From: Eledone cirrhosa
Lineage: Eukaryota
Reading direction: 5' to 3'
Assembly (NCBI GenBank): GCA_964016885.1
Contig: OZ024741.1
Location: forward strand, 132,246,001-132,310,000
Length of the DNA: 64,000 nucleotides
In this document: positions 7,415 to 56,263 of the stretch, one piece after another
Layout: the number at the start of each line of letters is the position of its first letter
How positions within the stretch are numbered: position 1 is the stretch's first letter
Notes under the pieces: model-generated
What the model was told of the DNA's origin: nothing
The model's database searches: none
What the model saw: the letters and a program-made list of their open reading frames with translations, nothing else
Made by a program: the position numbers and the translations under genes

Positions 7415-7485
7415 TATTTTATTATGCGCATTTCAAAAGCAAATATCATCATGAGATGACATTTGCGTTTTCGTCAGATAAAATA
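7415..7485 (-). ncRNA. Type I hammerhead ribozyme
   Basis: TATTTTAT-CTGACGA-long stem II (GCAAATGTCATC/GATGATATTTGC)-GAAA-T GCGC A-TA-ATAAAATA; perfect 8-bp stem I. Confidence 0.85.
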
Positions 7486-8698: not shown

Positions 8699-10132
8699 TT
8701 AATTGTAAGTTGTGATGTTGCTGTTCCACTCATATTTTCTATTTAATTTTGGTTGTAATTCTTTTATGTTTATTGCCTCTGTAATTTGTCTAAACATTGC
8801 ATCTGTTCTGTGTGTAGATTCTATTTTTATTTCTATGTTCTCTAATTTACCCTTGTGTTCTATCTTAGCATGTTGGTAGAGTACAGATGATTCTTTATTA
8901 TCTTGAAGGTCTCGCCAGTGTTCATTTATCCGTTCCCCTATACTACGAGCTGTCTCACCTATGTACACTATATTTTTGCTTCTACATTGTCCTTCAGTAC
9001 ATCTTATGCTATACACTACATTTCTAGTTTTACAGTTAATGTGGGGGCTTATTTTACAGGTTATACATTTCTTATCTATACATGAGGGTCTTTGGAACGG
9101 GTATGTCTTGCTAATAAGTGTTTTTACGGAGGTACCTGGTCTTTCTACTATCTTAATATTGAGTTTATGTTTATTTAGGGCCCTTCTAAATTTGTAGGCT
9201 AGTTCGCCTCTAGGGGTTGTATCGATGAACATTACACTCTGGTATTTATTGCTATCATACCATGAGTTTATTCTATTGGCCTTGTTCCTAGTTCTTTCTA
9301 TTCTATTCCAAAATTTGCTCCTATACAAGGGGCAGGTCCCATTTATGTCATTATTTACCATTTTTTCCCATTTGGTTCTGGCTCCTCTATACACTCTGAT
9401 TCTATCTCTCTGATTGTAGCCAGAGAACTGCATACGGTGGATGAAGTGTTGTATGTGTCTCTCTAGTTCTTCGGGGTTGCACATGCGGGACACATTTCTC
9501 ATCACCCGTACCAAATCCGCAATCAGTATGTTGATTTTGGTATGGTCCGAAATGGCCGAGTTTCGGTGGATCAGATGTTTGGAAGTCATGGGTTTGGCAT
9601 AATGGGAATGGAGGATTTGTTTTTGGTTGTTAATGGTATCTAACCAGAGCTCTGTGTCAAGTACAGGTAATCGATGGTTGGGGTGTCTACTTGGGTAGTC
9701 TATAGTAACTATAATGCTCTGGTGGATGGAGTTTGCTATTTGCTGGATGCTTTCCATTGTGTTTTTCTCTAGTTCCTGACTGTTCTCTAGTGGGGGTGTC
9801 TTAACTACGATGTTTATATCATCTACGTAGCGGGAGTACATTATCAGGGTTAAGGGGTCTTCTAATTGTTCTTTAAGTTTAAGTTTAATTCTACTGTCCC
9901 ACCATACCATGAATAGGTTAGCTATGTCGCCTGCAATGCTAACACCAATGGCTGCTCCTTCCTCTTGGGCATATGTTTTTCCATTAAATTTGAACATATG
10001 TTCCTTAAGGGTTAATTTTATGCTGGCCCCTACCGCATGTGCAATCATTTTCTTCAGTTCATCGTGGTTTTCGGGTGTCCGTATGGCTCTGGTCCACCCG
10101 TTCCATCTATCTGTGTGGGTTTTCTTGGCCAT
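8699..10132 (-). CDS. Penelope-like element ORF (5'-truncated): reverse transcriptase plus C-terminal GIY-YIG endonuclease, Neptune-like
   Basis: 477-aa ORF with RT motifs [23 protein letters not shown] and LPVLD, a C-X4-C-X2-C linker (CIDKKCITC), and GIY-YIG motifs [21 protein letters not shown]...H, RQITEA and LN. Confidence 0.92.
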
Positions 10133-10213
10133 TGAGGTAATGGTAGGTGGTCTGGCTCTTGCTGGTCTTGTAGGGCACAGGTTGCTAAGGTCATATGTGT
10201 GCCCTACAATATA

Positions 10214-10431
<218 letters not shown>

Positions 10432-20231: not shown

Positions 20232-20284
20232 ATTTTATTATACATATTTCGGATGTACAACAGTACGTCCTCATCAGACAAAAT
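20232..20284 (-). ncRNA. Hammerhead ribozyme
   Basis: CTGATGA-GGACGTAC TGTT GTACATCC-GAAA-TATG-TA, in a short element (about 20186-20342) between (TA)n tracts. Confidence 0.7.
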
Positions 20285-20339
20285 ATAATGATACATGACA
20301 TACCCTCAGATGTTAAATGGTTAAGATTTAATCAAGGTA

Positions 20340-20421
<82 letters not shown>

Positions 20422-20545
20422 GTAAGAGGTGAGTTTTATTGTAGAACAATAAAGCAATGCAGATATCAGATAAGTAGCACTCAACAGTTTATTGGACTGG
20501 AGTATATATAAGAAGAAATTAAAAGATGGTTAAAAAAGTTCCATG

Positions 20546-20729
20546 TATTTTATTATGCGCATTTCAAAACAAATATCATCCTGGGATGATATTTCCGTTC
20601 TCATCAGATAAAATAGGGAGACATGATATGATGCATGATATGATGCATGATATATCCCTATGTTATCTGATGAATACGCAAATATCATCCCAGGATGATA
20701 TTTGTTTTTGAAATGCGCATAATAAAATA
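20546..20729. ncRNA. Head-to-head hammerhead pair (20546-20615 minus, 20659-20729 plus)
   Basis: CTGATGA-long stem II (CAAATATCATC/GATGATATTTG)-GAAA-TGCGCA-TA; same family as 7415-7485. Confidence 0.8.
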
Positions 20730-21148: not shown

Positions 21149-22457
21149 TCAGTCCGGTGCCTTGTATTTATGCAATAGGTGTTTGGCGACGTGTGGACAA
21201 TGTGTGAAAAATTCACTACTTGTGTTTAGGCAATCACTATTGCCTAATCTCTTTAGAATAGTTATTCGTTCGTCAATACATAAGCCATACGTCGGATTTC
21301 CCCTTGCGTATGGCTTGGACTTAGTGATGATTTTCCATTGAATGGAGTAGTCTATACTTGAGTCCTTGAGGGACCATACGTGGCTTGCGAGTTTCGTGGA
21401 TGAACGTCTGTCCGGGTATCTGAAGGTAGACTGGTGGTTCAGGAAACGTTCCTTGAATCGGCCCTCCGCCATGCCCACATAGGATTTGAACTCCTGTGGT
21501 TCGTTTGGTCGGTTGGAAGTGACCACAGCTTCATAGATTACAGCTGGTGTGTTGCATTGCTGTTGAAGGGGGAAAGCTTCAGGCTTACAGCAAGAGAACC
21601 CTGGTGGGGTGTTGTTCCTAGGGCTGCTGGTGATGTGGGCCTTCATGTTCTTAGCGCAGGTGTATCCTAGTTTAACTTTGTGTCGGTTAAAGATGGAGCG
21701 GTATTTATGACCTATGGGGAAGTGTCTATCTAAGAGGGCTAGACATTTTTTTCCTACATTGGTTTTAACGTTGAGTGAGAAGGGAGGAGAGAACCAGATA
21801 GTTTTTCTATTGTTGCGCTTACGTTTCTTAATGGTGTTGTTGCTAGTGGGAGAGTAAGTGATAGGTTGTGAGAAGCCGCTGTTAGCCAACGCCGTGTTAT
21901 AGTAGGGTGCCGTCCTGTCAAATATAGCCTTATTAGAGGAGAGGTTTGAGATTCTAGTACTGATATTCTTAACGAAGTTTCTAAAAACAGTGGGAGGATG
22001 GCATGAGTCCTTGTGAATGTAGTTCTCGTTTAGCTTATGGAAGGGTCTGTGGGTGTGTGTGCGAAGGTCTAAATTAATGTCTAAAAAATCTACGCTAGAG
22101 AGGTTGGTGGCTACTGTTATCCTAAGACCTAACTCATTGAAAGTAGAAGCTAAGTCTTTTTTTAAACCGGTCGAGGTCGTGACCACTTTTATGGCTCGAT
22201 AAAGTCAGTCCATCGTCACGGTGTATTCCCGTGTGGAAGTCCGGGAATCTAACACGTAATATATCTAAGATAAAAAGGCCAACCAAGTCACATACGTCAG
22301 CACTGTCAAACGATCCCATGCAGACGTTGAACAGGTCTGAAGATGTAGACTTCTTTCCCCAGGCTACTCCGTCGTTGAAGAGGAGGGTTTTCCGGCAGTG
22401 AGCGATGATTTCCCTGTCTAAACCATCGACGGTGGTATAAGTGGTAGCGAAGTCCAA
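21149..22457 (-). pseudogene. PLE RT/GIY-YIG pseudogene (ORFs 22134-22457 and 21149-22186 joined by a frameshift; homology continues upstream to about 23050)
   Basis: The RT catalytic motif HRDD is in the 107-aa ORF; the thumb and GIY-YIG are in the 345-aa ORF; several conserved Cys appear decayed (FSCCKPEAFPL). Confidence 0.85.
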
Positions 22458-23054
22458 CGCTGAGATCGACGGGTAAAAATCGACAATGTCAAACTGCGTG
22501 AACTTCGCTTTTTGGGATTTTAAGGAGTTAAACCACTTAATTACGGAGTCGCTGTTCTCAACTGGGACAGGTTGGACTTGGTCCTAATGGTCTTAACTAT
22601 GTTTCTAAGTATGGCCTTACTGACTAGTCCCATATCTGTGCGTGTCGGGTTTATTAGTCTACATGTAGGGTTTGAAGTAAAGTCTACCTTGTGATCTTTC
22701 AGGGTGAGGAACGCCTCCCGCTTAGCTAGAGATTGTAGCTTCTTATCTACCTTAAGGTCGGTGGCTTCTGTATTAATGTCGTGTAGGCCATAGGGTTAGC
22801 TTTCTTATATTTAGAAGTAATAGCGTTATGGGCCAGGTGGCGGAAAGTGGTGTTGTCGACTTCGTAAATATTAGTTTTCTTAATATCGTTTCTGAGTTTC
22901 GTTTGAAAGGTGTTAGTGTGTTTGAGAAAGGAAATGTTAGCGACTAAGTCAAGAAGGTCCGTCTCGAAAGGAGCAAGTTCAGTTACCTTCGGAGGGAAGG
23001 CTCTCGATTTCAGGTTGAAGATGTTGTTGGTGCCTGTAATTTTGCCGTCGAAAG

Positions 23055-23093
<39 letters not shown>

Positions 23094-23097
<4 letters not shown>

Positions 23098-23330
23098 TAA
23101 AATGGCGAGATGTGTGGTTGCAATTAAGTATTCTCATTTCGTTGCTTCGCCCTTCGTGTCTGTTTACATTTTTTTCTCTTTCCCTCCCTTTTTTTATCCC
23201 AATAACTATTTTAGTTATTGTTCGCCCTAGGCTGAGGTATCTTGTCTCAACGCGAAGAAATACCTATGTTTCGTAGCAGACAACTGACGATGGATATTGC
23301 CCTCTTTCGCCCGTAACTTTTATTTTGATT
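23094..23330 (+). repeat. Diverged repeat family (also about 41476-41695 and 54650-54860)
   Basis: Shared aata(a/g)ct..tttagttattg..gcga(a/t)gaaatacc..CTGA(C/T)GA.gga; abuts (TA)n. Confidence 0.6.
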
Positions 23331-25249: not shown

Positions 25250-25292
25250 ACATTGGACTAGTTTCGATGTTATTACATCTCATCAGCAATAT
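25250..25292 (-). ncRNA. Hammerhead ribozyme (antisense arm)
   Basis: Reverse complement of 25576-25618. Confidence 0.88.
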
Positions 25293-25575
25293 ATACCTAT
25301 CTTTCCGGCTTCTCTGGAGAATTGTAAAAGCACATATCGTTATATGCTTTTTCTATGAAAATCAGTTATGGGCAGACTAATTTGCATAGAACGTGAGTCA
25401 TTGTACGCACCGGTTCAGCGGAAACGATAAAAACGAATAACGAAACGAAATTAAATTTCGCGTACAATGACTCACGTTCTATGCAAATTAGTCTGCCCAC
25501 TACTGATTTTCATAGAAAAAGCATATAACGATATGTGCTTTTACAATTCTCCAGAGAAGCCGGAAAGATAGGTAT

Positions 25576-25618
25576 ATATTGCTGATGAGATGTAATAACA
25601 TCGAAACTAGTCCAATGT
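25576..25618 (+). ncRNA. Hammerhead ribozyme (sense arm)
   Basis: ATATTG-CTGATGA-GATGT AATA ACATC-GAAA-CTAG-TC-CAATGT. Confidence 0.88.
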
Positions 25619-32475: not shown

Positions 32476-33085
32476 CATAAATCATGTCCTTAGAATCACT
32501 AGATAAAATATTAACCATATAAAAAATCAATTAGACCAAGCTATAAGAATAATGGCTCCTATGAAGAAATTTTCGACAAATAACCGAAAGCGACCTCTTC
32601 GCGGTGGCCCCAATAGAGTACTTATCCAACATTTCAACAGCATGTGGAAACTAACTAAATAACCGTCAACCATACACAATTAGGTGTAAATTCAAACTTA
32701 GAAGAAATGTGTACATACCGTAATTACATCTCTACCATGGTTTCGTCCGTATTTTTAGACATCCAATAGCAGAAAATGTCCAGAGTTTCGGACTCATCAG
32801 GAGCGAACTCTAAATTAGACATTTAATTTTCCAAAATGATCATACTCTATTGGGGCCACCGCGAAGAGGCCGTTTTCGGTTATTTGTCGAAAATTTCTTC
32901 ATAGGAGCTTTTATTCTTATAGCTTGGTCTAATTGATTTTTTATATGGTTAATTATGCTAATTGGGAGAAGAAATGGTATATATTTTATCTAGTGATTCT
33001 AAGGACATGATTTATGATATATTGCTCTGATAATTTAATTTATTAATTCTTCATTGAGCCACAACGTGACCGGTTACAAAACATA
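32474..33085. mobile_element. Fold-back element with an HHR in the unpaired centre
   Basis: 32474-32620 is inverted relative to 32843-33019, with an indel of about 30 bp. Confidence 0.85.
32730..32803 (-). ncRNA. Hammerhead ribozyme with extended stem II
   Basis: CTC-CTGATGA-GTCCG..TGGACATT/GATGTCTA..CGGAC-GAAA-C CATG G-TA-GAG. Confidence 0.8.
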
Positions 33086-33231: not shown

Positions 33232-33912
33232 GTGGGTAATATTATATTAAATATTATCCAATTACTAGTATGAGAATAGCCCAATGTAAATAACAAGAAA
33301 TGCATTATAAATAACAATCAAATAGTGTTTAAAACATTTAATCACTTACGATCGTTTCATCCTAGAATAAGGCTAGATCATCGGAGTATATAATAAAGGT
33401 TAAAACGCATATATAATATCAGAAGTGTGTGGAGGATACATAATATGGGAAGTAAGCATAAGTATCAACATTTATGTAAGAAAAGATGGCAAAGACGGAA
33501 AAAGCATATGAAAAATATGAGCATATAAATACAATAAAATTAGGAGCAGTTAAAAGCATTAAACATTTTTTTTTTTTTTTTAACATTTAAAAACAAATTT
33601 TTTTAATTAAAAAGTTTTTTTTAAACTAAATTTTTTTAAATTTTTAATGCTTATAGCTGCTCCTAATTTTATTGCATTTATATGCTCATATTTTTCATGT
33701 TTCTTCCGCCTTTGCTATATTTTCTTATATAAATGTTGATACTTATGTCTACTTCCATATTATATATCCTCCTAAAGTTCTTATGACAAACTTCTGATAT
33801 TATATCTGCGTTGTAACCTTCATTATATACTCCGATGATTCCGGCCTTGTGCTAGGATGAAAAGATCGAGATTAAATATTTTAAACACCCTTTGATTGTT
33901 ATTTATAATGTG
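33232..33912. mobile_element. Older, diverged fold-back element
   Basis: 33303-33560 is inverted relative to 33645-33910 with many mismatches. Confidence 0.8.
33344..33387 (-). ncRNA. Hammerhead motif (core CCGATGA); decayed inverted partner at about 33829-33872
   Basis: ACT-CCGATGA-TCTAG..CTAGGAT-GAAA-C GATC G-TA-AGT. Confidence 0.6.
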
Positions 33913-33966
33913 TATATATATTTATACATATATATATATACACACACACACATATATATATATATA

Positions 33967-34479
33967 TGAAAATTAGAATTGGTGGTCTGAAATAGCGATA
34001 TATATATGAATGTATATATAGTGTGTTTTGCAATACACTGTATGCTTAATTAAAAGCATTTTGAAGACCTTACGCTATTGTTTTAAAGTACTATACCCTA
34101 AAGTCTTCAAAATGCTTTTAGTTAAGCATACAGTGTATTGCAAAATACACTATATATACATTCATATATATATCGCTATTTCAGAGCACCAATTCTAATT
34201 TTCAATTTTTGCTGGATCGGCAACCGCTCTGTATATTCAGTTCCTGAGTATTACTGGAATTCTATAAGAATCCAATATTCATAATTTTCAGCAAGCACGG
34301 GGAGTAGTAAGCTCTGAGGAGTACCATCAGTACGAAACAGAGATCTGTCAGCTTATCTCCCTTTGTTTGCTGAAAAAAAGAAGTAAGTGACATAGTCACT
34401 ACTTTAAACCAATAGCGTAAGGTTTTCAAAATGCTTTCAATTGAGCATACAGTGTATTGCAAAATACACTATATATACA

Positions 34480-34483
<4 letters not shown>
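33967..34483. mobile_element. Retrozyme-like element: antisense arm plus about 319-bp sense monomer with terminal redundancy
   Basis: ttcaaaatgcttt..gcatacagtgtattgcaaaatacactatatatacattca occurs at 34106 and 34425; one canonical HHR lies between. Confidence 0.88.
34285..34376 (+). ncRNA. Canonical type I hammerhead ribozyme with extended stem I
   Basis: Core 34308-34355: TAAGCT-CTGAGGA-GTAC CATCA GTAC-GAAA-CAG AGAT CTG-TC-AGCTTA. Stem I continues with GGGAG/CTCCC and TTTTCAGCAAGCA/TGTTTGCTGAAAA. Confidence 0.92.
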
Positions 34484-34547
<64 letters not shown>

Positions 34548-34694
34548 AAATAGGATTTCGCTTCAAGCATAACTTTATACAATATGTATAAAGATTTCGT
34601 ATCTCCAAAGAAATACAGTTTTAGGAAGCCGTAGCTATGCAAACACCGGGAGGCTAACGCCCTCTGGTGATGTCCAGCAGAAGCAAGGCGGACA

Positions 34695-34738
34695 ACCGTC
34701 TATGCATTTCAGGCTTAACTGGCCTTCGTCAGGACGGT
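34695..34738 (-). ncRNA. Hammerhead ribozyme (antisense arm, core CTGACGA)
   Basis: Inverted partner of 34975-35018. Confidence 0.87.
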
Positions 34739-34974
34739 CCCTCCCACCGCTTGCGACTGCTGGACTAGAAGACAGCCGAGAATATATACTTTTCTCGTCT
34801 GTGTAAATGAGGTGATTAATCTCATTTGCATATGAGATTAATCTTTTTTATTATAAGTTGAGCCAACTTATGCAGCTTCATATGAAAATGAAATTAATCA
34901 CCTCATTTACACAGACGAGAAAAGTATATATTCTCAGCTGTCTTCTAGTCCAGCAGTCGCAAGCGGTGGGAGGG

Positions 34975-35018
34975 ACCGTCCTGATGAAGGCCAGTTAAGC
35001 CTGAAATGCATAGACGGT
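34975..35018 (+). ncRNA. Hammerhead ribozyme (sense arm)
   Basis: ACCGTC-CTGATGA-AGGC CAGTTAA GCCT-GAAA-TGCA-TA-GACGGT. Confidence 0.88.
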
Positions 35019-35798
35019 TGTCCCCCTTGCTTCTGCTGGACATCACCACAGGGCGTTAGCCCCTCGGTGTTTGCATAGCTACGGCTTCCTAAAACTGTAT
35101 TTCTTTGGACATACGAAATATTTATACATAGATATATATATCATCCAGTGTTTATAGCATCAAAAGCAACTTATGTATTAAGAAACCAAAGGATGTCGTG
35201 GCACATTTGAAATTGTGTGTAATTCTCTGTATATCTTTCAGGGAATGAACCGCAAAAACTGAGTCATCAACGAAAAGAAGCACACGGATAAATATATTAA
35301 TGCCCTTTCTGGGGGATATTTGCCTAGATAGGTTTAACAGTTCACTCTGCTGCAGATATATACACCACCTGCGAACTCACCCGCCATATTTTCACTCACC
35401 ACATTCAGGAATAATAGAAGAAGCGTTGGAGCATTGACAACCGGAAAGGGCGCTTAACTCTCGCTTCTAAATAAGACCCTAACAAATACGCCAGAGTAGA
35501 AATGCCCGACTCTCTTCTCAAATTACTCCGGACATCTCTACCTAGATGAATAAATCCATCTGAAAGCGTTAGACACGTTTACGTCTATGAAACAAAGGAT
35601 AATGCAGAGATAAGTCAAACTGTAAACATAAATACTATATGAATGTGCGTGTGTGAGTGTGTGTGTTTGAGTGCATTTGTATGTTTCTACATATATATAT
35701 CATAATAATAAAAATAAATAAATAAAAATATATATTGGCAATATTATTACAACAACATGACCCTTCCCAAGTATGACAATATATATATATATATATAT

Positions 35799-35944: not shown

Positions 35945-36133
35945 TGGTGAATTGGCAGTATCGGTAGAGGGTTGGGCGCCATGCTTTCTAACATAGTTAC
36001 ATCCCTTTACAGTCTGAGTTCAAATGCCGCCGAGGTTAACTTTGCCTTTCATCCTTACGGGGTCGATAAAATAAAGTACCAGTAATGTACTGGGTATTTG
36101 CTGGCCTTGTGCCTAAAGTAGAAACAATTATTA
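35945..36133 (+). mobile_element. SINE family 1
   Basis: Full copy. Confidence 0.88.
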
Positions 36134-36406
36134 TAGATAACGAGGAATCAGTAATGCATCAAAACACAATTTATTAACATATTACATATGTTTTTCCGTC
36201 GATCGGCTCAAGGTAGGATCTGTTACAGATCGAACCCGACTCAGCATTCGCATGGAATGCTTTGAATACACAAGATGTGTTTGAGGAACTTGCGAATGCA
36301 GAGTCGGGTTCGATTTGTAACAGATCTTGCCTTGAGCTGATCGACGGAGAAACATATGTAATATGTTAATAAATTGTGTTTTGATGCATTACTAATTCCT
36401 CGTTAT

Positions 36407-36412
<6 letters not shown>
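36134..36412. mobile_element. Fold-back element with a hammerhead 3' half (GAAA-C ATAT G-TA)
   Basis: 36134-36252 is inverted relative to 36291-36412. Confidence 0.85.
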
Positions 36413-36471
<59 letters not shown>

Positions 36472-36540: not shown

Positions 36541-36583
<43 letters not shown>

Positions 36584-37542
36584 TTGGAAAAAGGAAAAGG
36601 AAATGCTGACAAATTGTTCCCAGTGAAAAATAGTTTAATTAGGAATAAGTAAAAATTAGTAATAAGTATTGGTTAGTATTCAGTTTTGGTTTTAAGTTTT
36701 TACCGGTTGCGCACTTCTAATGCTTTTCAAAAATAAATTTGAGATAGAGCGTCCGTGATGTTTGCTCTAATCTGATTAGTTTTGGAAATTCTACCTGTTT
36801 TATGTGAAAAAAGTGGCTCCAGATGTATTAAAATAAGTTTCGCGCCAATTCGTGTTGCAAAAATTCTTGTGGTCAAAACAATTTTGATTGGTCGGTAGAG
36901 GTCATGTGAATGTTAAAAATTGATTTTGCGCCAAATGTAGGTTTGTCTCGGCTGAGTGAGAAGTCACTGAAAAATAAGTCTTTTAAGACAAATATGTGTG
37001 TGTGTGTGTGTGTAGTAGTAGTAGTAAAGAGGTTCATTGTTGTGATAATGGTCACTAGGGATATGTGTGTGAATTGCAGTCATGTTTTACTGAAAATATC
37101 GAATAATGTACACCATTTGTACCAGTATCACAAAAATACTGGTCCATGCACACACACACATACACACATACACACACATACACACACATATATACACACA
37201 CACACATACACACATACACACATACACACACATACACACACATATATACACACACACACATACACACGCGTACACTAACATACAAAGAGACATATACACA
37301 CACACACTTCTCCGTATAAGACAAGAGCTGAAAAATATCTTTTAACATGTTAAAATATCCCCCACACACGTACAGACACATTCCTACTGACCGATCCCTC
37401 TACCACGAATTACTCTGCTACACACACACACACACACACACACACTTGTCTTAATAGGCACCTTAACTGTTGACCTGTCAACATGACTGCAATTCACACA
37501 CATCCCTACTGACCATTATCACAACAATGAACCTCTTTACTA

Positions 37543-37586
<44 letters not shown>

Positions 37587-37793
37587 TTGTCTTAAAAGAC
37601 TTATTTTTCAGTGACTTCTTAGAAGTGCGCAACCGGTAAAAACTTAAAACCAAAACTGAATACTAACCAATACTTATTACTAATTTTTACTTATTCCTAA
37701 TTAAACTATTTTTCACTGGGAACAATTTGTCAGCATTTTCTTTTCCTTTTACCAATATATCATAACTCGTGTGTTACACCTCTATTCTTTTAA
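36584..37793. mobile_element. Fold-back element, same family as 40610-41427 and 48089-48517, with a CA-rich centre
   Basis: Shared aaaatgctgacaaattgttc..ttaccggttgcgca; the right arm has an internal deletion at about 37620. Confidence 0.8.
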
Positions 37794-43002: not shown

Positions 43003-46000
43003 CTATCTATCTATATCTAAGCCGGGTAAAATTCCCGAGATCCATGGACGAGTTCTCTCCAGCGGTCTCTGTCCCTCATTATCGCTGCCATGTCCTGCAT
43101 CTCCAACAGACCAGTGTCTGTCCTTAGGGCATCAACATACGTTAACATTGGTCTTCCTCTTCTAGTGTGTCCATGTAGGGGCTCCCAAAGGAGTACTGAG
43201 TGCAATGTCAACTCTGGATGTCGGTGAGCATGTCCAGCTAACCTCAGTCTCCTCTGTGTCACTTTTGAGCTGACTTTTGGGATGCTCCCATACAGTTCTG
43301 AGTTTTTCATCCTCAGTGTATACTGATTAATGTTCAGAGCCATCCTCAGCATTCTCGTGTAGCACCCATCCACCATCTGAGTGAGTTTCTTGGTCAGTGT
43401 CCAAGTCTCAGACCCATACAGCAGCACAGACTCCACTACAGCAATGAAGAGGCGGATTTTCAGGTCTCCACGAAGGTCCGACTTCCACACCGATCTCAAG
43501 ATGTGGCACGCCGCCTAGGCCTTGCTCTTCCTCTCAACCACATCATCTTCCATATTCCCAATCTTTGCTCCCAAATACAGGAAGTCCTCAACCAATTCCA
43601 GCGGCTTTCCGCCTACATTAGTGATCCCCTCTGGCTTCTCAACATTCTCTACCAGATATTTTGTTTTAGTCTCATTCATTCTCAGCCCCACACTCATCGA
43701 CACAGTCTCAACCTCCCGCATCAAATCCTCTGCCTCCTTCACTGTATCTGTCACCAAAACTATGTCGTCGGAAAATTCAGCATCCGATACCTTTTTCGCC
43801 CTAACTCTCCTGCTCTGAGCCGGTGCTACAGTAAAGCCAGAGTCCTGGTGTTTCTCCAGTGCAAGGCGCATACAATAGTCCACTACGATGATAAAAAGGT
43901 AGGGAGCCAATGTATCTCCCTGGAGCACTCCAGCCAGTATCTCAAAGAACTCTGTCATCCCATCAGGTGTAATGACTTGGGCTTGGTGTTGGTGTAGAGT
44001 AGTGATATCAGGTCCACTATCCTCTTGGGGATTCCATAAGCCTGTAAGATCTTCATCAGGCAGTAACGGTCCACAGAATCAAAGGCCTTCCTAAAGTCAA
44101 TGAAAACCATGACCGCAGGAAGGCACTTTACTCTAACTCCCTCTAATATCCTCCTCAGCATCAGGATGTGACTGGTGGTTGATCTACCCTCTCTGAAGCC
44201 GTTCTGGTTGTCCCTGAGCTTCTGCTCCATCTCGGGCTGGATCCTGTTAAGAATCATCCTGTTGAGGGTCTTTGCCACAAGTGACGTCAGTGAGATCCCC
44301 CTGTAGTTGTTGGTGTTAGAGAGATCTCCCTTCTTTGGCACTGGGACGATGTTACTGATCCTCCACTGATTCGGGGCAACTCCTTTCTCCAGTGCCCCGT
44401 TACAGAACCCCAGGATGATATCATCAAAATCACACCTCTTCATCACCTCTAATGCCACTCCATCTTCTCCATGGGCCTTGCCCTCCCTGATCCTCTTCTT
44501 GGCTCTCTGAAGCTCCTCTCTGGTGAAGGGCTCTGTCTCAACATCCAGTTCCTCAAACAGCCGCCTGATCTCCCCAGTGCTCTGGGCTGTGGAGGGTGGC
44601 TCTCCTAGTAGGGTCCTAAAATGGTCTAGCCATTTCCTCTTCCTATCCTCGGGCCCCGTTCCCTGGATCTGACTCGAACACCTTCTCTTCCTCCCTGTGA
44701 TCTCGTTGATGATCATCCAGCTCTCCTTACATCCAGATCTGTCAACCGCTCTCTCCACACTTCTGATCTTCTCTATCAGTGCCTCCTCTCTGACCTCAGT
44801 GTAAGCGGTACAGAGCTCTTCCCTCATCACCTCCACAGTTTCCATCCTCTCCTCTGTAGGATCAGCATAGAATTGGTCCCTGGCAGCTTTCAGGTGTTCT
44901 CTGGCTGCATACACTTTTGGGTTTGCAGAGCTGACGTGCTTCCCTTTGTTCTTTTTCCTCGGCACCAGGGTTTCACTTGCTTCCGCCACTGCATTGGTGA
45001 AGTGCCCGTACCTCCTCGTCACACTCTCCTCAGTCCATCCAATCTCTCTCTCCTCTGACTCTCCACACAGAGCACTAAACCTATTTCTCACTTCCACTGT
45101 GAACCTCTCCTGTAGCTTATCATCTTCCTTGAAAGCTCCCCAGTTATAGATTGTTCTCCGGGGCTGAGCCTTGCTCTTTCTTAAGCTCACGCGGACCTCA
45201 CTCATAACAAGCCGGTGGTCACTACCCAGTGTACTGAAATAGCTGTATGGTTCCGTGTTCAGAACACTATTCCGCCACTTTTTCCTCACCAGAATGAAAT
45301 CAATCTGGGACTTGGACAGGTGCATATCTGAGATGTAGGTCCACATCTTCCCCAGATTCTTCCTAAACCTTAGGTTGGTCGCCATCAAGTTCACCTCCAG
45401 CAGGGTGTCTCTCAGTAGTCTTCCATTTCGGTTGGTTTTGTTATGGAAGTACCAGCAAGGATCTTCACTGCCCTCCTTACTCAGATGTGCATTGAAGTCC
45501 CCCAAAACAAGCAGGATATTGTGTGCCTGAGTGGTGTTGACAGCTCTACACACCTCCTCATGGAACTCTTCCGCATTCACATCACTGTCCCCCTCGGTTG
45601 GACTATAGGCTGAGATGACTGTCAGTCTTGGGTTTCCATTGAAGGTCACCCTCAACACTCGCGAGGAGATAGGCATTATTTCCCTCACCAACAGATTGGT
45701 TTTTGCACTGAACACAAAACCCACTCCTCCTACTGCAACATTTGTTGTGTTCTTCACTGCCGATGTAGTGATGAGCTGGCTCTTCCTCCCGATCATCACA
45801 CTCCTCACGGGCTCATCGTGTAGAATCCTGTGTTCTTGGATCGCAAGTATCTGTATACCACTCTCCTCGAACAGATGTCCCAACTCCTCTCTCTTCTCCA
45901 GCGTCCGAATAGTCCTCACATTCAAAGTGCCCATTTTGATGGCTCTTCTGCAGGACAAAACTGCATTCTTTATATTTGTCTCAGAGACAGCTGATCCATC

Positions 46001-46325
46001 ATCCACTGGCCCTCTCTGTGGTTCTAAGCCAGCAGAGTCATAACGACCAGGCTGCTCCTTGACAGTGTAATTAGGGGCTCTAACCCTAGTGCTGTTAGAT
46101 CGACTCTCCATATTTCTTTTCAATGGCTGACAATACCTTACCGGCGCCACTCGAATAAGGTAGTTATTTAACCCATAAATGGAGCCCTAACATGTACTAC
46201 CACCCCGGGCCAGGGCAGACCTGGGAGTCATGACAACTAAGGGGTAACTCCACATTCCCCACATCTCCTGAACTCCCGAACTGGAGACTTGCCACTGGAT
46301 GTAGTTTAATGTCATACCCAGGACA
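43003..46325 (-). mobile_element. Apparently full-length RTE-clade LINE with (TAGA)n-like tail and 14-bp TSD
   Basis: Single APE+RT reading frame; TSD tattttatatatat at 42989-43002 and 46326-46339; tail tagatatagatagatagat starts at the stop codon; about 175-nt 5' UTR. Confidence 0.93.
43017..46150 (-). pseudogene. RTE LINE endonuclease/reverse transcriptase ORF with one frameshift (about 43984) and one in-frame stop (about 43515)
   Basis: APE motifs GTLNVRT, IQEHR, GDFNA, IDFILV, SDH; RT motifs PKKGD, NYRGISL, QNGFR, FIDFRKAFDS, GVLQGDTLAP, FSDDI, FLYLG; C-terminal LLYGSETW and RLRLAGH. Confidence 0.92.
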
Positions 46326-55222: not shown

Positions 55223-56263
55223 ATACTTTGGGAGGGTCATGTTGCGAATAAGAAACACACGCACCAGTTCCTTTCACTTCAATTTATTATAATAAATTTA
55301 TAAATTTAGGAATTTATATATTTCCGGTTGGTTGGTTGGTTCCACAACCAGATGATTGTTTATATATTGTCAAAGTTCTTTCGTCACACATTCTGTGACC
55401 TCTTCAGTGACTGGGGATTCTTTTCTTTGTTTTTTGTGCCTCTCCTTTGTTCTGTCCTACGCCATCTTGTTTTTGTGTTGTGTGCTTAGTTTGCGCATGT
55501 GTTACATCCGGGTGTCTGTGAGTGTTTATATTCGTTTATTTATTTGTTTATTTACATGTTACTGGTTGGTTGTTTGTTCTATGTGCGTGTGTGTTTTCAT
55601 TTTGTCCTTAATTGTAAGTTGTGAAGTTGCTGTTCCACTCATGTTTTCTATTTAATTTTGGTTGTAATTCATTTATGTTTATTGCCTCTGTGATTTGTCT
55701 AAACATTGCGTCTTTTCTGTGTGTAGATTCTATTTTTATTTCTATGTTCTCTAATTTACCCTTATGTTCTATTTTAGCATGTTGGTAGAGTACAGATGAT
55801 TCTTTACTATCTTGAAGGTCTCGCCAGTGTTCATTTATCCGTTCCCCTATACTACGAGCTGTCTCACCTATGTACACTATATTTTTATCTCTACATTGTC
55901 CTTCAGTACATCTTATGCTATATACTACATTTCTAGTTTTACAGTTAATATGGGGGCTTAATTTACAGATTATACATTTCTTATCTATACAGGGAGGTCT
56001 TTGAAAAGGGTATGTCTTGCTAATAAGTGTTTTTATGGAGGTACCTGGTCTTTCTACTATCTTAATATTGAGTTTATGTTTATCTAGGGCCCTTCTAAAT
56101 TTGTCTCTCTAGTTCTTCGGGGTTGCACATGCGGGACACGTTTCTCATCACCCGTACCAAATCCGCAATCAGTATGTTGATTTTGGTATGGTTCGAAACA
56201 GCTGAGTTTCGGTGGATCAGATATTTATCAGATAAATATCTGATCCACCGAAACTCAGCTGTT
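55217..56263 (-). mobile_element. Truncated copy of the 8235-10209 PLE family with an internal deletion and a terminal fold-back
   Basis: Colinear with 8295-9194 and then 9455-9580. ORF 55608-55877 encodes the same GIY-YIG C-terminus. Ends in a perfect hairpin at about 56197-56263. Confidence 0.9.
55369..55411 (-). ncRNA. Hammerhead ribozyme in PLE pseudo-LTR
   Basis: Same motif as 26375-26417. Confidence 0.7.

Follow-up and report, generated by a model that had tools for sequence, protein, structure and literature searches.

A 319-nt hammerhead repeat of Eledone cirrhosa as a candidate animal non-LTR retrozyme probably moved by Penelope-like element proteins

A 319-nt repeat of Eledone cirrhosa, found as an insertion at 33967..34492 of the 64,000-nt stretch of contig OZ024741.1 analyzed here (the window), qualifies by its sequence, at the level of the family, as an animal non-LTR retrozyme: its unit has 34.8% GC, no frame longer than 43 aa and a type I hammerhead. 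Its length lies within the 150–450 bp of such retrozymes, as a first, sequence-only reading of the window had proposed. The repeat is not an autonomous Penelope-like element (PLE), but it appears to be moved like one. We favor, with somewhat better than even confidence, the reading that PLE proteins move it mainly from a circular RNA, with a linear minority.

The insertion consists of two arms that meet at 34090, with their 3′ ends facing outwards into (TA)n. Unit coordinates run from q1 (34106) to q319 (34424) in an arbitrary register. Sequence comparison identifies the antisense arm (33967..34090, minus strand, 124 nt) as the reverse complement of q294 to q99; it abuts the sense arm at 34090, lacks the hammerhead and ends in a tail, q69–q99 (33967..33997, minus strand), present at this outer end only. 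By analogy with the mechanism described in PMC11167929, we infer that this tail would lie between two reverse-transcription start sites. The sense arm (34090..34492, plus strand; about 400 nt or 1.26 units) begins at q303, runs through one full unit and continues to q68, ending without a tail inside a TA run; its first 16 nt have diverged. On the left, the target site is a (TA)n/(CA)n microsatellite (33910..33966), and on the right a (TA)n microsatellite (34483..34545), into which the TA run inside the element passes without a break; target duplications are unreadable within these (TA)n flanks. An internal copy of the tail occupies 34174..34199 (plus strand), and family 3′ ends cluster at both its borders, 34173 (q68) and 34199 (q94). 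Loose (TA)n ends behind 34199 occur in 56, 42 and 51 contigs of three runs of one sample, which is possibly the assembly's own source and is not independent of the assembly.

The sequence-only reading had noticed the same roughly 60 nt at both ends of the sense arm, 319 nt apart, and comparison bears this out: 34093–34173 and 34412–34492 are 91% identical over 81 nt at a spacing of 319. The absence of an ORF from the monomer likewise stands, since the unit at 34106..34424 (plus strand), read as a circle, has longest ATG frames of 28 and 43 aa and is thus non-coding. Sequence and tree assign this unit to subfamily 1a (C3–G8 core), from whose majority sequence it differs by 11 substitutions and one extra A. 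The crossing of 34106/34425 by the antisense arm had also been taken as evidence for the template. This argument fails: the register was chosen arbitrarily, q319–q1 is ordinary contiguous sequence and the crossing proves nothing. The seam of a ribozyme-made circle would be 34349/34350, which is crossed only by the sense arm. The inverted arm itself had been left unexplained, the PLE footprint that accounts for it having been missed. An assembly artefact was rejected, given that the arms differ by about 6% and that there are hundreds of like loci.

Descriptor search and folding place a type I hammerhead with an extended stem I at 34285..34376 (plus strand). The core motif CUGAGGA (34314–34320) is followed by a stem II of 4 bp (34321–34333), by GAAA, by helix III (34337–34348), and by a GUC ending at 34349, with the predicted cut after C34349; the CUGANGA/GAAA/NUH core, the three helices and the open helix I are those of type I. 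Stem I has 7 bp and a long interrupted extension, with a bulge after 6–7 bp in clade 1 of the family. The fold has a z-score of −6.9, and none of 200 shuffles was equally stable. The hammerhead, GUC site and long interrupted stem I of the earlier reading are confirmed. This copy's minimum-energy fold (−33.1 kcal/mol) is, however, more stable by 2 kcal/mol than the active one (−31.1 kcal/mol). Rfam hammerhead models gave no match, neither at the gathering score nor at E values up to 5. A miRNA hairpin was rejected, the miRNA-type Rfam matches being hairpin and TA artefacts below the gathering score.

Across 32 aligned units, both partners have changed in 10 of the 25 named pairs, a count that is uncorrected for kinship. 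The double changes include the 3–8 core pair, three of the four stem II pairs and one helix III pair; the 3–8 pair is C–G in 15 units, U–A in 16 and U–G in one. Among 43 core matches in the 3′-end sample described below, at least three of them spurious, 35 are U3–A8, four C3–G8 and four other. Each paired change is probably a single event between subfamilies, with few events overall, and the covariation of the helices and the 3–8 core suggests a ribozyme under selection.

Helix III comprises 4 bp when A15.1–U16.1 is counted, a pair that the earlier reader had omitted in describing a 3-bp stem III that could cleave as a monomer. Together with its loop (12 nt) it forms a palindrome, which in clade 2 is perfect and occurs in three spellings and in clade 1 is one base off. 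The self-duplex is calculated at −12 to −24 kcal/mol versus −1.8 to +0.4 kcal/mol for the hairpin, and the self-complementarity survives the double changes between subfamilies. A U3–A8 core and a palindromic helix III are described for PLE hammerheads in the accessible text of PMC4209133, where the palindrome is read as dimer cleavage. Because helix III stays palindromic across the subfamilies, the hammerheads studied here probably cut as dimers through it, and the proposal of monomer cleavage is weakened, although a helix III of 4 bp may still allow it.

A relaxed hammerhead descriptor found eight matches in the window versus 0–1 in each of 10 shuffles. An inverted pair at 34583–35130, with 253-nt arms that are 96% identical and a minimal hammerhead in each (34981, plus; 34732, minus), would represent a different PLE-type family. 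Another inverted pair of minimal hammerheads lies at 25256–25612 (25582, plus; 25286, minus), and at 20239–20607 and 7423–7477 (minus strand) there are three further hammerheads of type I whose helix III is palindromic, two of which belong to one family. Inverted-arm insertions sit between microsatellites at 32510–32953, 33280–33880, 36129–36414 and 36579–37760, that at 33280–33880 having a core that resembles a hammerhead's but deviates in its first box. PLE reverse transcriptase (RT) or GIY-YIG fragments occur on the minus strand at 8699–10219, 21149–23133 and 55608–56108. The first and last of these belong to one PLE family with a hammerhead-like motif in its 3′ region, one with a tail of about 60 nt and one without. 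As coding partners of the 319-nt element, all three fragments were ruled out by their different 3′ ends. A broken non-LTR retrotransposon at 43017–46186 (minus strand) carries an AP endonuclease and an RT, as read by eye from its translation.

In the 3.0-Gb, microsatellite-rich host genome, where the unit measures 318–319 nt, exact patterns matched 3370 times close to the 3′ end of the element, 1386 times across the tail border and 493 times at the clade 1 cut site; a DNA search returned 2840 first-look candidates, of which 40 were scored. A tree of 67 full units resolves two clades (support 100/100) and four subfamilies. These are 83–97% alike, with members 3–4% from their own majority sequence, and the family appears to be moderately old; the copy at 34106..34424 belongs to the minority clade, with C3–G8. 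Upstream of the hammerhead, 23 of 23 distinct family loci remain within the unit, a chance 16-mer (L052) being excluded from this set, and so do 29 of 30 matches (26 loci) followed downstream from the tail, the remaining one ending there. Among these 23 + 26 sampled loci no ORF-joined copy was seen and no frame for RT and GIY-YIG, which is absent from the unit as well; nor was there a case of the repeat as a mere pseudo-LTR of a coding PLE, the outcome that had been named as counting against a retrozyme.

The search for tandem arrays recommended at the outset was positive: it found one array of about 8 units and another of about 17, such arrays being rare, together with nine head-to-tail pairs of the clade 1 cut-site motif versus 493 exact motifs. 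Hammerheads in at least two consecutive units, the tandem hallmark of retrozymes, are thus present at the level of the family; the copy at 33967..34492, with a single hammerhead, is what Li et al. 2026 (10.64898/2026.07.22.740005, as far as its accessible text goes) call a "monomer derivative". The array of 17 units (L103; G000:C1:82.390–82.396 Mb) has units 83–95% identical (mean 88%), with related pairs 3–9 units apart and neither end at a family start site, and has been reshaped at the DNA level, with internal duplications. Elsewhere (L104–L107; G000:C1:56078396–56078904), a 163-bp deletion unit without hammerhead forms a tandem of four, in which one base alternates and which still ends at the q94 tail; as a subfamily it was rejected, being confined to one locus. 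At locus L026 (2674–3217), a beta-tubulin-like processed fragment, read by eye, lies beside a family copy.

The ends of dispersed copies were sampled in 55 loci with 88 arms, taken from the first 100 listed of the 3370 3′-end matches; 21 loci came from the pattern search and 34 were fetched, most loci from earlier searches being left out. Two of the loci (L131 and L133) seem to have arisen by segmental duplication, and a few short arms are maybe neighbors or noise. Whereas the 5′ ends vary, the 3′ ends are fixed: 45 of the 88 arms end at q59–74 and 39 at q93–106, the two end sites lying about 26 nt apart, and 36 of the 39 tail ends run directly into (TA)n. Adjacent inverted pairs number 31, of which 27 combine one tail end with one tail-less end, one has two tail-less ends, three have an unclassified end and none has two tails. 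Such one-of-each pairing in 27 of 28 classified pairs has a p of 1e-7, and it recurs in the insertion at 33967..34492.

Inverted truncated arms, a one-sided tail and a bias to microsatellites are PLE traits according to PMC8557442, and in vitro work showed that a PLE protein can cut the two strands and extend them, starting at a pair of internal RNA sites on either side of the tail (PMC11167929). Because PLEs start at two internal sites, no RNA 3′ end is needed. With the truncated inverted arm, one-sided tail and microsatellite target all present, the repeat appears to work as a PLE-mobilized element. Coding PLEs of the same genome share its end design, an internal TA run, an optional tail of about 30 nt and then (TA)n; long PLE frames of 844–1096 aa with a CxxxxCxxC linker exist there and would be Neptune-like by this motif alone. 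A comparison with 30 GIY-YIG and three long-frame loci, out of 10597 endonuclease candidates, found no coding partner with homology above shuffles beyond the TA runs, which weighs against our preferred reading. One coding PLE family (L138–L165, e.g. G000:C1:267.12 Mb) has a minimal U3–A8 hammerhead with a stem-loop II similar to the one in clade 2b, and at L139 the 319-nt element has a copy inside the terminal TA run of a coding PLE of this type.

The template that these proteins would have copied can be approached through the arms that exceed one unit. The predicted cut is read through by 63 of the 88 arms, 55 once and 8 twice, the longest arm having 748 nt; 62 of 72 read-through junctions are exact and one has an extra base. 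We then compared haplotypes at sites polymorphic within a subfamily, using all loci then in the set, some of which came from biased patterns. Successive passes in one arm differ at 44 of 569 sites (7.7%; 100 arms) and the paired arms of an insertion at 40 of 837 (4.8%; 94 pairs), versus 35.9% in matched controls. Passes and arms being far less discordant than the controls, each insertion goes back to a single haplotype. Such uniformity is expected of a circle or of a homogeneous multimer but not of random jumps; the circular or multimeric template of about 319 nt proposed at the outset thus gains family-wide support. Passes are slightly more discordant than arms (p 0.03), and two insertions (L029 and L216) combine units or arms from both clades, which may reflect nested insertion, conversion or a template switch; both points tell somewhat against a circle.

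A minority of arms begins exactly at the first base after the predicted cut: 4 of the 88 sampled arms, from three loci. Genome-wide, clade 2 5′ junctions were sought with patterns of two non-family bases before a 20-mer, under one scoring rule. The cut site gave 11 junctions in 20 matches; upstream positions gave 2/17 (−5), 0/4 (−3), 0/2 (−2) and 3/6 (−1), and downstream ones 3/9 (+1) and 4/7 (+6). Position +3, with three junctions in the first 30 of 127 matches, four among the first 100 listed and an overall figure of about 4–5, is swamped by a one-base variant subfamily (10 matches read by eye, 60 assigned to the variant from their first two bases). The rule misses fold-backs, which add two loci at the cut, one at +1 and two at +6, and the cut-site count includes two doubtful loci (L207 and L213). 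By eye, nine cut-site loci are clean and two are fold-backs on an AGCU palindrome; one locus is common to the 88-arm sample. The Poisson p for 11 junctions is 4e-5 against the mean of all neighbors and 0.003–0.014 against the downstream positions, pattern stringency varying slightly. Clade 1 gave two junctions in five matches and has no control positions. At one locus (L222/L223; G000:C10:13520551–13520621), both arms begin exactly at the cut, joined by an A/T homopolymer of about 30 nt that is perhaps an untemplated addition after run-off. Taken together, the 5′ ends are suggestive of an RNA that is cut in vivo and of cut linear RNA being copied on occasion, while the AGCU palindrome at the cut could by itself favor junctions there. 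Five arms of 459–490 nt (L208, L210, L211, L212 and L215) cross the cut once and stop on reaching it a second time; a closed monomer circle would not predict such stops, and a partly cut dimer would fit them better.

The sequence of events that we consider most likely begins with the transcription of multi-unit copies, whose hammerheads would cut at GUC, probably as dimers, the units then being ligated into circles. A dimer of the borrowed PLE RT-endonuclease would nick both strands of a TA tract and copy one RNA, most likely a circle, from internal starts at q68 on one strand and q94–99 on the other; both cDNAs would run back round the unit and be joined at their far ends, thereby writing the 319-nt repeat into (TA)n. 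In a few per cent of arms the template would be the cut linear RNA, with run-off at the cut. We prefer the circle because multi-unit sources are rare, because a fixed internal start erodes length, and because selection for cutting fits closed, reused units best.

The alternative that survives best retains the same element and the same proteins and replaces the circle by linear templates, namely multimers transcribed from young homogeneous tandems and partly cut by the hammerhead. We regard it as unlikely, yet worth serious attention. A homogeneous uncut multimer would give equal read-through and haplotype results, and the clustering of 5′ ends at the cut site, including the five on a second pass, and the small excess of discordance between passes sit well with it. 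The arrays of 8 and 17 units are possible sources, and the main in vitro substrate of the anole PLE was unprocessed RNA, the hammerhead not being required (PMC11167929). Linear multimers are, however, difficult to reconcile with the scarcity of head-to-tail pairs in clade 1, and present arrays are heterogeneous (mean identity 88% in L103), yet passes keep one haplotype. A fixed internal start would also shorten the element in each generation, so that the family should erode, and selection for cutting would be hard to explain if cut units were dead ends yielding arms of 141–168 nt.

Considerably less probable is pseudo-circular copying, in which linear cut monomers would be read with end-to-end template jumps at the cut. 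Jumping would account for arms that stop at the cut on first or second arrival. Jumping RTs add bases at junctions, however, and only 1 of 72 junctions has an added base; jumps between random molecules would mix haplotypes, which is not observed, and the L029 chimera switches elsewhere than at the cut. That a long coding PLE left the repeat behind as a truncated pseudo-LTR, or that it is a satellite or palindrome at the DNA level without an RNA stage of its own, we consider very improbable and largely refuted for the sampled copies: every end feature is that of coding PLEs, pseudo-LTRs and retrozymes are related (10.64898/2026.07.22.740005), and L103 shows internal duplications at the DNA level, but the loci stay in the unit on both sides and the dispersed copies have fixed 3′ and variable 5′ ends.

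Returning to the circle copied by PLE proteins, we see an even chance that the copies form a fossil record of a retrozyme life cycle. In that record the RNA would be cut in the germline, the 3–8 pair would have switched while the palindromic helix was kept, and a PLE RT dimer would copy a ligated circle for more than one round from both sides of the break, using two internal starts. If true, this would tie the circle route to the tail mechanism established in vitro and settle if hammerheads of the PLE type are active in vivo; the movement of retrozymes and such cutting in vivo are open points in the accessible texts of PMC7229834, PMC8557442 and PMC11167929. The family supplies a 319-nt substrate with named starts and a named cut, which makes circle versus linear template a simple in vitro test. 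A search of main texts (supplements may list such families) found no paper on a cephalopod retrozyme and none on 5′ ends at the cut site. The kind of element is already known; this moderately old family contributes the excess of 5′ ends at the predicted cut site and the covariation of the ribozyme across subfamilies.

Compared with metazoan non-LTR retrozymes, as described in the accessible parts of PMC7229834 and 10.64898/2026.07.22.740005, the family shares the type I hammerhead, the low-GC non-coding unit of 150–450 bp, the occurrence as monomers, dimers and arrays, the presence of PLEs in the genome and the proposed mobilization by them. It differs in that its copies are mostly dispersed inverted pairs of 0.3–2.3 units rather than arrays. 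A PLE tail, two start sites and cut-site 5′ ends are visible in the Eledone genome and go unreported in those parts of the two sources. In contrast to Xenopus (10.64898/2026.07.22.740005), no homologous pseudo-LTR was found in 33 Eledone loci. A plant LTR retrozyme (type III, with PBS and PPT) was rejected, and no LTR design was seen at the locus or in the 88 arms.

With EN+ PLEs and the non-autonomous Chlamys/MRC1 (PMC8557442 and PMC11167929, in their accessible text), the Eledone element has in common an inverted 5′-truncated arm, a one-sided tail of 30–40 nt, the (TA)n bias, partial tandems and a hammerhead. Unlike EN+ PLEs, it lacks an RT or GIY-YIG frame, and the whole is a closed unit of 319 nt. 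At the hammerhead cut, where the Eledone DNA copies pile up, Frangieh et al. 2024 (PMC11167929) detected no RNA-seq ends. Its ribozyme resembles the PLE hammerheads of Cervera and de la Peña 2014 (PMC4209133, accessible text) in C3–G8/U3–A8 covariation and palindromic helix III, and departs from them in a helix III that is not minimal but has 4 bp and a 4-nt loop, in a long stem I, and in combining both core types in the subfamilies of one family.
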